A stretch of 2,355 nt of DNA from assembly GCF_003334785.1 (NCBI RefSeq), contig NZ_QOWV01000057.1; one strand, 5' to 3'. A model generated the notes under the pieces. The model made no database searches and was not told the origin of the DNA. It saw only the letters and a list, made by a program, of their open reading frames with translations. The stretch comes from Escherichia coli. GTDB lineage: Bacteria; Pseudomonadota; Gammaproteobacteria; Enterobacterales; Enterobacteriaceae. A program made the translations under genes and the position numbers. Positions 1 to 2,350 of the stretch are shown here, in pieces; positions within the stretch are counted from its first letter, which is position 1; each line of letters begins with the position of its first letter.

Positions 1-19
1 CGTTATATCCGAAGCCCCC

Positions 20-412
20 GTGGTAAAAAAACGTCCCCGGCGGCCCAACTTCCCTTATGAGTTTAAAATCGCCTTAGTGGAGCAGTCACTGCAGCCCGGA
101 GCCTGTGTGGCGCAGATCGCCCGGGAAAACGGAATCAACGATAACCTGCTCTTCAACTGGCGCCATCAATACCGGAAAGGTGGCCTGCTGCCTTCCGGAA
201 AAAATATGCCGGCACTGCTTCCCGTGACGTTAACGCCGGAGCCGGATAATAAAATCCCGGCCCCCGCACAGGAACCAGAGCAGATAAATACACCGTCCGA
301 CAGTCTGTGTTGTGAGCTGGTTCTGCCGGCCGGAACTCTCAGGCTTAAAGGTAAACTGACGCCGGCGTTATTACAGACACTTATCCGCGAAATAAAAGGG
401 AGCAGCCACTGA
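20..412 (+). CDS. tnpA: IS66-family accessory protein TnpA (orf1), predicted helix-turn-helix DNA-binding protein
   Basis: 130-aa ORF from GTG at 20 to TGA at 410-412. The N-terminus (EFKIALVEQSLQPGACVAQIARENGINDNLLFNWRHQYRKG) fits the HTH pattern of IS66 orf1 and related transposase N-terminal domains. A Pro/Glu-rich linker follows, then a C-terminal segment (ELVLPAGTLRLKGKLTPALLQTLIREI) resembling the conserved orf1 C-terminus. The reading frame is open all the way to position 2, so the true start could lie upstream of the window, and no clear Shine-Dalgarno precedes the GTG. Confidence 0.85.
   Translation: MVKKRPRRPNFPYEFKIALVEQSLQPGACVAQIARENGINDNLLFNWRHQYRKGGLLPSGKNMPALLPVTLTPEPDNKIPAPAQEPEQINTPSDSLCCELVLPAGTLRLKGKLTPALLQTLIREIKGSSH
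396..401 (+). promoter_or_regulatory. Shine-Dalgarno-like AGGGAG for tnpB, embedded in the 3' end of tnpA
   Basis: AGGGAG at 396-401, 10 nt upstream of the tnpB ATG at 412-414. Confidence 0.5.
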
Positions 413-759
413 TGATATCTCTCCCTGCAGGTTCGCGTATCTGGCTGGTTGCAGGTATCACCGATATGCGAAATGGCTTTAACGGCCTGGCATCAAAAGT
501 TCAGAACGTCCTGAAGGATGACCCGTTCTCCGGACACCTGTTCATCTTCCGCGGACGCCGGGGTGACCAGATAAAAGTGTTGTGGGCTGACAGTGACGGA
601 CTGTGCCTCTTCACCAAACGCCTGGAGCGGGGCCGCTTCGTCTGGCCAGTCACCCGTGACGGCAAGGTGCACCTTACTCCGGCTCAGTTATCCATGCTTC
701 TTGAAGGTATCAACTGGAAGCACCCGAAACGAACGGAACGCGCTGGAATCCGCATATAA
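412..759 (+). CDS. tnpB: IS66-family accessory protein TnpB (orf2); unrelated to the IS200/IS605 TnpB nuclease
   Basis: 115-aa ORF, ATG 412-414 to TAA 757-759. The sequence (RIWLVAGITDMRNGFNGLASKVQNVL...PFSGHLFIFRGRRGDQIKVLWADSDGLCLFTKRLERGRFVWP) is characteristic of IS66 orf2 as I recall it from enterobacterial IS66 elements. The start overlaps the tnpA stop (ATGA), as is typical for the family. Confidence 0.92.
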   Translation: MISLPAGSRIWLVAGITDMRNGFNGLASKVQNVLKDDPFSGHLFIFRGRRGDQIKVLWADSDGLCLFTKRLERGRFVWPVTRDGKVHLTPAQLSMLLEGINWKHPKRTERAGIRI

Positions 760-771
760 CCCGTTGTAAAG

Positions 772-777
772 TGAGGA
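772..777 (+). promoter_or_regulatory. Shine-Dalgarno-like GAGGA for tnpC
   Basis: tGAGGAt at 772-778, immediately before the ATG at 779-781. The spacing is short (1-2 nt after the core), so this is only a moderate-confidence RBS. Confidence 0.45.
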
Positions 778-778
778 T

Positions 779-2350
779 ATGGACACCTCACTTGCTCATG
801 AGAACGCCCGCCTGCGGGCACTGTTGCAGACGCAACAGGACACCATCCGCCAGATGGCTGAATACAACCGCCTGCTCTCACAGCGGGTGGCGGCTTATGC
901 TTCCGAAATCAACCGGCTGAAGGCGCTGGTTGCGAAACTGCAACGTATGCAGTTCGGTAAAAGCTCAGAAAAACTTCGTGCAAAAACCGAACGGCAGATA
1001 CAGGAAGCACAGGAGCGAATCAGCGCACTTCAGGAAGAAATGGCGGAAACGCTGGGTGAGCAATATGACCCGGTACTGCCATCCGCCCTGCGCCAGTCTT
1101 CAGCCCGTAAACCGTTACCGGCCTCACTTCCCCGTGAAACCCGGGTTATCCGGCCGGAAGAGGAATGCTGTCCTGCCTGTGGTGGTGAACTCAGTTCTCT
1201 GGGATGTGATGTGTCAGAGCAACTGGAGCTTATCAGCAGCGCCTTTAAGGTTATCGAAACACAACGTCCGAAACAGGCCTGTTGCCGGTGCGACCATATC
1301 GTGCAGGCACCAGTACCTTCAAAACCCATTGCACGCAGTTATGCCGGAGCGGGGCTTCTGGCCCATGTTGTCACCGGGAAATATGCAGACCATCTGCCGT
1401 TATACCGCCAGTCAGAAATATACCGTCGTCAGGGAGTGGAGCTGAGCCGTGCCACACTGGGGCGCTGGACAGGTGCTGTTGCTGAACTGCTGGAGCCGCT
1501 GTATGACGTCCTGCGCCAGTATGTGCTGATGCCCGGTAAAGTCCATGCTGATGATATCCCCGTCCCGGTCCAGGAGCCGGGCAGCGGTAAAACCCGGACA
1601 GCCCGGCTGTGGGTCTACGTCCGTGATGACCGTAACGCCGGTTCACAGATGCCCCCGGCGGTCTGGTTCGCGTACAGTCCGGACCGGAAAGGTATCCATC
1701 CACAAAATCACCTGGCCGGTTACAGCGGTGTGCTTCAGGCCGATGCTTACGGTGGTTACCGGGCGTTATACGAATCCGGCAGAATAACGGAAGCCGCGTG
1801 TATGGCTCATGCCCGGAGAAAAATCCACGATGTGCATGCAAGAGCGCCCACCTACATCACCACGGAAGCCCTGCAGCGTATCGGTGAACTGTATGCCATC
1901 GAGGCAGAGGTCCGGGGCTGTTCAGCAGAACAGCGTCTGGCGGCAAGAAAAGCCAGAGCCGCGCCACTGATGCAGTCACTGTATGACTGGATACAGCAAC
2001 AGATGAAAACACTGTCGCGTCACTCAGATACGGCAAAAGCGTTCGCATACCTGCTGAAACAGTGGGATGCACTGAACGTGTACTGCAGTAATGGCTGGGT
2101 GGAAATCGACAACAACATCGCAGAGAACGCCTTACGGGGAGTGGCCGTAGGCCGGAAAAACTGGATGTTCGCGGGTTCCGACAGCGGTGGTGAACATGCG
2201 GCGGTGTTGTACTCGCTGATCGGCACATGCCGTCTGAACAATGTGGAGCCAGAAAAGTGGCTGCGTTACGTCATTGAACATATCCAGGACTGGCCGGCAA
2301 ACCGGGTACGCGATCTGTTGCCCTGGAAAGTTGATCTGAGCTCTCAGTAA
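779..2350 (+). CDS. tnpC: IS66-family DDE transposase TnpC (orf3)
   Basis: 523-aa ORF, ATG 779 to TAA 2348-2350. It has an N-terminal heptad-rich coiled-coil region with the IS66-typical FGKSSEKL motif (nt 953-976). A CxxC...CxxC zinc-finger-like pair follows (CPAC at 1169-1180, CRC at 1283-1291). Candidate catalytic residues are HADD (D at 1550-1555), QADAYGGY (D at 1742-1744) and NNIAEN (E at 2123-2125). Length and domain order match IS66 transposases. Confidence 0.95.

Follow-up and report, generated by a model that had tools for sequence, protein, structure and literature searches.

The stretch of DNA analysed here, hereafter the window, comprises 2355 nucleotides from Escherichia coli (contig NZ_QOWV01000057.1, assembly GCF_003334785.1) and contains three co-oriented open reading frames (ORFs) on the plus strand, at positions 20..412, 412..759 (115 aa), and 779..2350 (523 aa), over which the RefSeq gene labels are tnpA, tnpB, and "IS66-like element ISCro1 family transposase". 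These tnpA-tnpB-tnpC genes form one co-oriented unit. The subject of this analysis is the middle gene, tnpB, an ORF running from an ATG start to a TAA stop at 757–759 (window 412–759, + strand) and encoding a 115-aa accessory protein of IS66-family insertion sequences (IS). The initial annotation had placed this product in the IS66 Orf2/TnpB family, and the results below lead us to a probability of around 0.85 that the ORF is the tnpB gene of an ISCro1-type IS66-family element.

Comparison of the tnpB product with profile libraries gave a match to the Pfam family PF05717 (TnpB_IS66) with an expect value (E) of 5.4e-40, covering residues 9–106 of the protein and positions 2–100 of the 101 in the model, and this was its sole Pfam match at E ≤ 10. 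The NCBIfam model NF033819 (IS66_TnpB) was matched from end to end (positions 1–90 of 90) with 128.9 bits, the curated cut-off being 50, and the RefSeq protein WP_000624622.1, named [quoted passage not shown], is identical in sequence to the protein encoded in the window. With a tnpA gene upstream and an IS66 DDE transposase gene downstream, these matches bear out the family proposed in the initial annotation. PF05717 was also the only Pfam match for the TnpB homologues (40/40), and an exhaustive HMMER scan detected family matches at E ≤ 1e-3 in 15,419 cluster representatives at 50% identity. Most members of the family are 115–121 aa long, so that the TnpB of the window, at 115 aa, is a single-domain protein of full length for the family. 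When set against TnpB/Orf2 of IS679, ISEc8, and ISCro1, it resembles them in its full-length match, its size, its position between tnpA and tnpC, the overlap of the tnpA stop with the tnpB start, the GTAAGCG-type ends of the element, and the 8-bp target duplication, and no difference was found: it belongs to the family and reproduces an annotated protein exactly. Neither Pfam (E ≤ 10) nor NCBIfam gave the tnpB product a match to any nuclease, recombinase, or ATPase model, and a PADLOC scan for defence systems gave no match for TnpB. A search for further divergent homologues, by word-indexed search, a scan of viral contigs, and tblastn against plasmids, returned close relatives only.

The element is abundant. 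The window is 100% identical to sequences in many complete E. coli genomes; of the 5426 genomes, 2906 contain a match and 1503 contain one that covers at least 80% of the window. These matches lie on chromosomes and plasmids, one E. coli genome showed 34 of them, and the tnpB DNA was also matched in at least 5000 plasmid records. The gene is already known, it sits in a very common known IS, and the window itself contains nothing novel. In a locus of E. coli 2/0 (L001), the window corresponds to locus positions 3001–5355 and lies within a whole IS copy of 2699 bp (locus positions 2682–5380), so that it begins 319 bp inside the IS and ends 25 bp short of its right end. The ends of this copy, GTAACCGG... 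and GTAAGCGA..., both outside the window and with 22 of 40 positions matching, were located through the terminal motif GTAAGCG (right end) and the target duplication; automatic detection of inverted repeats had missed them because these repeats are only 55% identical over 40 bp. The copy is flanked on each side by the 8-bp duplication TTTTGAGG, which shows a genuine transposition event.

The gene is also well conserved. Against 21 other distinct homologous copies (70–100% amino acid identity), the ratio of nonsynonymous to synonymous substitution rates (dN/dS) of tnpB was 0.00–0.16, and copies with 3–5% nucleotide divergence differed by zero or one amino acid, a pattern from which tnpB is, as judged from sequence comparison, a real gene under strong purifying selection. 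The initial annotation had described TnpB as one of the most conserved components of these elements, and this description held over 29 distinct three-gene loci: TnpB was more conserved than TnpA in all of them, and its conservation equalled or exceeded that of TnpC in every locus but the near-identical L019, a marginal exception (TnpB 99%, TnpC 100%). As examples, identities to the window were 32% (TnpA), 71% (TnpB), and 59% (TnpC) for locus L054, and 56%, 85%, and 78%, respectively, for locus L033.

With regard to expression, the tnpA stop and the tnpB start overlap in the sequence TGATG (410..414, + strand), base 412 being common to both genes, with tnpB in the -1 frame relative to tnpA, and a Shine-Dalgarno-like GGGAG element (398..402, +) lies 9 nt upstream of the tnpB ATG. 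A purine-rich tract (GGGGG, GAGAGG, or the same GGGAG) occupies the equivalent site in the closer copies (L002–L051) and is not evident in the copies that have diverged most (L054, L058, and L069). A TGATG, TAATG, or ATGA overlap, always with tnpB in the -1 frame, was present in all 10 of the diverged loci with upstream sequence. Such a stop/start overlap was also found in metagenomic members at about 50% identity, in which a gene with an HTH_Tnp_1 match precedes tnpB and an IS66 transposase gene follows it wherever the downstream product has Pfam matches (LZ_Tnp_IS66, zf-IS66, and DDE_Tnp_IS66 in L083). This overlap, and its retention in diverged copies, indicates that tnpB is made by translational coupling. 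PMC3469429, restating Han et al. 2001, describes for IS66 elements the synthesis of three proteins by translational coupling with no frameshift. A programmed -1 frameshift leading to a TnpA-TnpB fusion was considered as a conserved feature and rejected: both frames are open over 355–409 and there is an A4 run at 394–397, but no canonical heptamer was found, the run is broken (ATGAAAG) in copies 95–97% identical, and PMC3469429 reports coupling. Further downstream, a Shine-Dalgarno-like GAGGA element for tnpC (773..777, +) is located within the 19-nt spacer between tnpB and tnpC, a spacer that measures 19–49 nt among related loci. No promoter-like or plus-strand terminator-like sites were detected across the window.

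The TnpB protein is strongly basic (pI 10.9, with 19 K+R versus 10 D+E). Six residues (D18, R20, R47, G48, F76, and W78) are invariant and a further six (T17, K55, K69, R70, Q92, and W102) near-invariant; conserved residues among them are surface candidates. Two AlphaFold2 models built from different alignments shared the same topology, b(10-16) a(23-36) b(43-47) b(53-60) b(63-70) b(85-87) a(90-97), followed by a tail disordered from about residue 108, and on these models TnpB is predicted to be a single-domain alpha/beta protein. A PUA-like fold emerged as a tentative lead from these predictions, reproducible but obtained by a single method and with a moderate score, and is not a family assignment.

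With these data in hand, TnpB is most likely an accessory subunit of the DDE transposase TnpC, produced by translational coupling and itself non-catalytic. It would probably act with TnpA, as a small nucleic-acid-binding or bridging module, the binding role itself being one that we infer at somewhat less than even odds. In IS679, tnpB mutants reportedly fail to transpose, so that the gene would be required. The arrangement recalls that of IstB of IS21, MuB of Mu, and TnsC of Tn7, each of them a separate small protein encoded beside a DDE transposase, co-expressed with it, and needed for transposition or modulating it. However, those proteins are AAA+ ATPases, whereas IS66 TnpB gave no match to ATPase models and is at most a third as large.

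Several points weigh against this reading of TnpB. An ISBst12 subgroup of the IS66 family is said to be devoid of both tnpA and tnpB, and if so, TnpB cannot belong to the core chemistry of transposition. The initial annotation had considered the biochemical role of TnpB poorly defined, and this still stands, as neither a structural nor a biochemical characterisation of IS66 TnpB, nor any definition of what it binds, was found in the literature searched. The confidence of the structural models is only moderate, with values of the predicted local distance difference test (pLDDT) of 71–74 (74.4 for the first model and 70.8 for the second, which was built from 53 sequences and was no better). The PUA-like similarity was not recovered in a Foldseek search of the TnpB model against the PDB, where nothing was significant (best E = 0.089, template modelling score ≤ 0.38) and the top matches were SH2 domains. 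In addition, hhalign gave the family profile probabilities of 0.25% against E. coli YqfB (ASCH) and 0.17% against the YTH domain of YTHDC1, with the limited sensitivity of references that are single sequences (the YTHDC1 YTH sequence was verified), and the family profile gave nothing significant against PDB sequences. Finally, fused TnpA-TnpB ORFs were present in 5 of the 10 long representatives with a TnpB domain, but in some of them (e.g., P0071) the TnpA match ends early and is followed by a linker rich in R, G, and C; such junctions fit out-of-frame translation, and these ORFs may be frameshift or sequencing artefacts and not genuine fusions of two domains. As Rosetta-stone evidence that TnpB and TnpA are physical partners, the fused ORFs are consequently weak.

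Other long representatives showed different arrangements. P0006 is a TnpB-TnpC deletion fusion, P0080 is a chimera in which an intimin/invasin-like N-terminus is joined to TnpB residues 17–108, and in P0003 an unrelated N-terminal region of 288 aa is joined to residues 16–115 of a 100% identical TnpB. IS insertion or truncation probably gave rise to the two chimeras.

Among the alternatives to a plain accessory subunit, the one that fares best, while still being unlikely, sees TnpB as a tether to the beta sliding clamp, with the motif Q92-L-S-M-L96 (codons at 685..699, +) seated in the hydrophobic pocket of DnaN and IS66 transposition linked in this way to the replication fork. The motif scan showed that this pentapeptide fits the clamp consensus Q-L-[SD]-L-[FL] apart from the M at position 4, and the residues are conserved at 91–98% among 53 sequences (Q92 in 52, L93 in 48, L96 in 49), position 89 being T or S in 53/53. 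The study of Gomez et al. 2014 (PMC3971601) reports beta-clamp motifs with the consensus Q-L-S-L-F/L in IS66 TnpB and/or TnpC, and states that TnpB of IS66a carries strong beta-binding motifs. The TnpC of the window has, for its part, a QLELI sequence at residue 148. In that same study, however, binding was assayed and shown for TnpC-derived peptides only, none of them being from TnpB. Moreover, one of the two most conserved positions of the consensus, position 4, is occupied by M or Y instead of L, and in both models the motif falls inside a predicted helix (90–97), not in a flexible exposed tail. T/S89 and Q92 make up a [ST]-x-x-Q capping box, and the spacing of L93, L96, L97, and I100 (i, i+3, i+4, i+7) is amphipathic, so that helix capping and packing would explain the conservation of the motif with no need for a clamp. 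As for TnpC, its clamp-like QLELI (window 1220–1234, residues 148–152) lies between the cysteine pairs CCPACGG ... CCRCDH, in a predicted zinc-finger region, which is a class of location named by Gomez et al. 2014 (PMC3971601).

Slightly less probable, and equally a minority view, is the proposal that the PUA-like EVE/YTH/ASCH base-reader fold has in IS66 TnpB a minimal member or analogue not recognised before. As an EVE/YTH-type reader, TnpB would capture, in DNA of the IS ends or of the target, a base that is flipped or modified (N6-methyladenine, for example); just as doubtfully, transposition would in this way be coupled to DNA modification or to the replication state. No paper linking IS66 TnpB to a PUA-like EVE/YTH/ASCH fold was found in the literature searched. 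Against it, Pfam ASCH, EVE, and YTH gave no matches with the query and the 40 homologues, a TruB_C match of a single member (E = 0.08) being noise. TnpB also differs from the PUA-like base readers (EVE/UPF0310/THYN1, YTH, ASCH, and the YTH-like N-terminal domain of McrB) in its hhalign probabilities below 1%, in the failure of Foldseek to recover the likeness, in its length (115 aa versus 129–183 aa in the solved chains), and in an aromatic cage that is putative at most. The distribution of GATC (Dam) sites was considered as a possible support for a methyl-adenine reader. ISCro1 (L001 2682–5380) has five of them, all located up to 435 bp from the left end or up to 165 bp from the right end and leaving a GATC-free interior of 2.1 kb (nominal p of about 0.002 for what is a post-hoc observation); four lie in the window, at 115–118, 2218–2221, 2312–2315, and 2333–2336. 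Diverged IS66 relatives do not show this clustering at the ends, which is confined to the ISCro1 lineage, and therefore it gives the methyl-adenine reader no support at the family level and was rejected as such.

Less probable again is that TnpB acts mainly as a negative regulator or inhibitor of TnpC, by analogy with OrfA of IS3 or with the unrelated TnpB of ISDra2. The IS66 subgroup without tnpA and tnpB reportedly still transposes, and small accessory proteins of IS elements are often repressors; ISDra2 TnpB is cited as a repressor of transposition in PMC8944449. A dispensable repressor would, however, be unusual under such strong purifying selection and when conserved no less than the transposase. 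The loss of transposition said to follow from tnpB mutation in IS679 would likewise indicate a positive requirement. The accessory subunit remains for us the preferred reading, and the two that follow have close to no probability.

The first of them takes the product for a TnpB of the IS200/IS605 type, an RNA-guided RuvC nuclease, or a fragment of it, mislabelled as IS66. "TnpB" names three unrelated proteins: that of IS66, that of IS200/IS605 (e.g., ISDra2), and the tyrosine recombinase of Tn554, and the shared gene name is all that speaks for this identity. No OrfB_IS605, Zn-ribbon, or RuvC model matched TnpB at E ≤ 10 or the 40 homologues at E ≤ 0.1, and the NCBIfam models of guided TnpB gave no match at E ≤ 0.01. 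The check proposed in the initial annotation, a comparison of IS66 Orf2 with OrfB_IS605 profiles, thus matched the IS66 family only, and the significant IS605-type or RuvC hit that was to count against it did not appear. Proteins of the IS605 type are around 350–550 aa, and a length of 115 aa is here the full length of the family and not that of a fragment. Furthermore, a scan of the window with Rfam revealed no RNA family, its sole match being a chance miRNA-like one (E = 0.19), and the neighbours are a helix-turn-helix (HTH) TnpA and a DDE TnpC, not a Y1 HUH TnpA. Beyond the name and residence in an insertion sequence, nothing is common to IS66 TnpB and the TnpB of IS200/IS605/IS607: the former has no RuvC or Zn-ribbon match, no associated RNA family, and HTH and DDE partners instead of a Y1 HUH or serine TnpA. 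The Pfam and NCBIfam scans refute an IS605-type or RuvC identity, in agreement with the initial annotation, which had denied any relationship between both proteins. With Tn554, the likeness consists of the name and of membership in a tnpA-tnpB-tnpC trio; its TnpB has tyrosine-recombinase catalytic motifs, and no such domain was found in the TnpB of the window. The second, that the ORF arose by chance or has decayed and is functionless in the copy of the window, could draw on the several short ORFs that overlap tnpB in other frames of this G+C-rich sequence, and is refuted by the dN/dS values, by a 3–5% nucleotide divergence in which all or nearly all changes are synonymous, by the full-length family match, and by the intact coupling signals in an intact 2699-bp element with its target duplication.

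The warning of the initial annotation that this gene is easily misannotated was well founded. Many of the homologues carry the label "transposase" in the Joint Genome Institute (JGI) annotation, PHROG 623 is named "transposase", and some plasmid records show "hypothetical protein" or "transposase". No case of an IS66 TnpB labelled as an RNA-guided nuclease was seen among the annotations examined. The PHROG 623 profile is 259 positions long, with TnpB matching at 127–240, and merges TnpA and TnpB under the one name, a label that can spread misleading annotation in phage genomes.

Regarding the neighbouring genes, the left edge of the window cuts tnpA, of which the 3' part is present (1..412, +, with the TGA at 410–412), encoding an HTH-containing IS66-like accessory protein TnpA that matched the NCBIfam model NF038385 (IS66_access_TnpA) with 186.9 bits over profile positions 80–189 of 190. 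The RefSeq TnpA (L001 2735–3412) is 225 aa long, its start lies 266 nt before window position 1, and the GTG at position 20 is not the real start. TnpA ORFs of the ISCro1 type have 220–250 codons and are around 90 residues longer than those of distant relatives (133–142 codons in L051, L054, and L058). The tnpC gene (779..2350, +) encodes a 523-aa IS66-family DDE transposase, named "IS66-like element ISCro1 family transposase" by the Prokaryotic Genome Annotation Pipeline (PGAP), and its product matched NF033517 (transpos_IS66) with 477.9 bits, the cut-off being 180. In three loci (L019, L020, and L023), TnpB is 99% and TnpC 97–100% identical to those of the window element, yet TnpA is only 60–63% identical, a mosaic that suggests, from these identities, recombination or module exchange limited to tnpA.

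Other observations concern the surroundings and the structure of the element. The ISCro1 copy of E. coli 2/0 lies in an apparent island (L001 1–8355). Upstream there is a GTPase-family gene and downstream a gene of the inovirus Gp2 family, and the copy is adjoined by a gene for a RepB-family replication regulator, the annotated end of this gene reaching into the final bases of the IS. Several E. coli genomes (e.g., NZ_CP074717.1, 3018068–3021689) have the ISCro1 copy split into two pieces by an inserted IS600 of the IS3 family, giving a nested IS, and an "AL1L pseudoknot" feature is also annotated at these split copies. Inside the window, an imperfect inverted repeat of 44 nt, 70% complementary and with 752 nt between its arms, connects 322–365 in tnpA with 1118–1161 in tnpC, and most likely it arose by chance in G+C-rich coding sequence.

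In conclusion, the practical value of this analysis is a clean annotation for a protein whose name is common to unrelated proteins and which is often labelled plainly as "transposase". The protein is conserved no less strongly than the transposase, in an IS family that runs to more than 15,000 clusters (50% identity), but the literature searched offers no biochemical function for it. Of the points raised here, the tentative EVE/YTH-like fold alone looks ahead; along with a structural reading of the clamp-like motif, it opens this gap to a few cheap experiments. If the PUA-like proposal were true, the widespread IS66 family would gain a nucleic-acid reader subunit that gates its DDE transposase.

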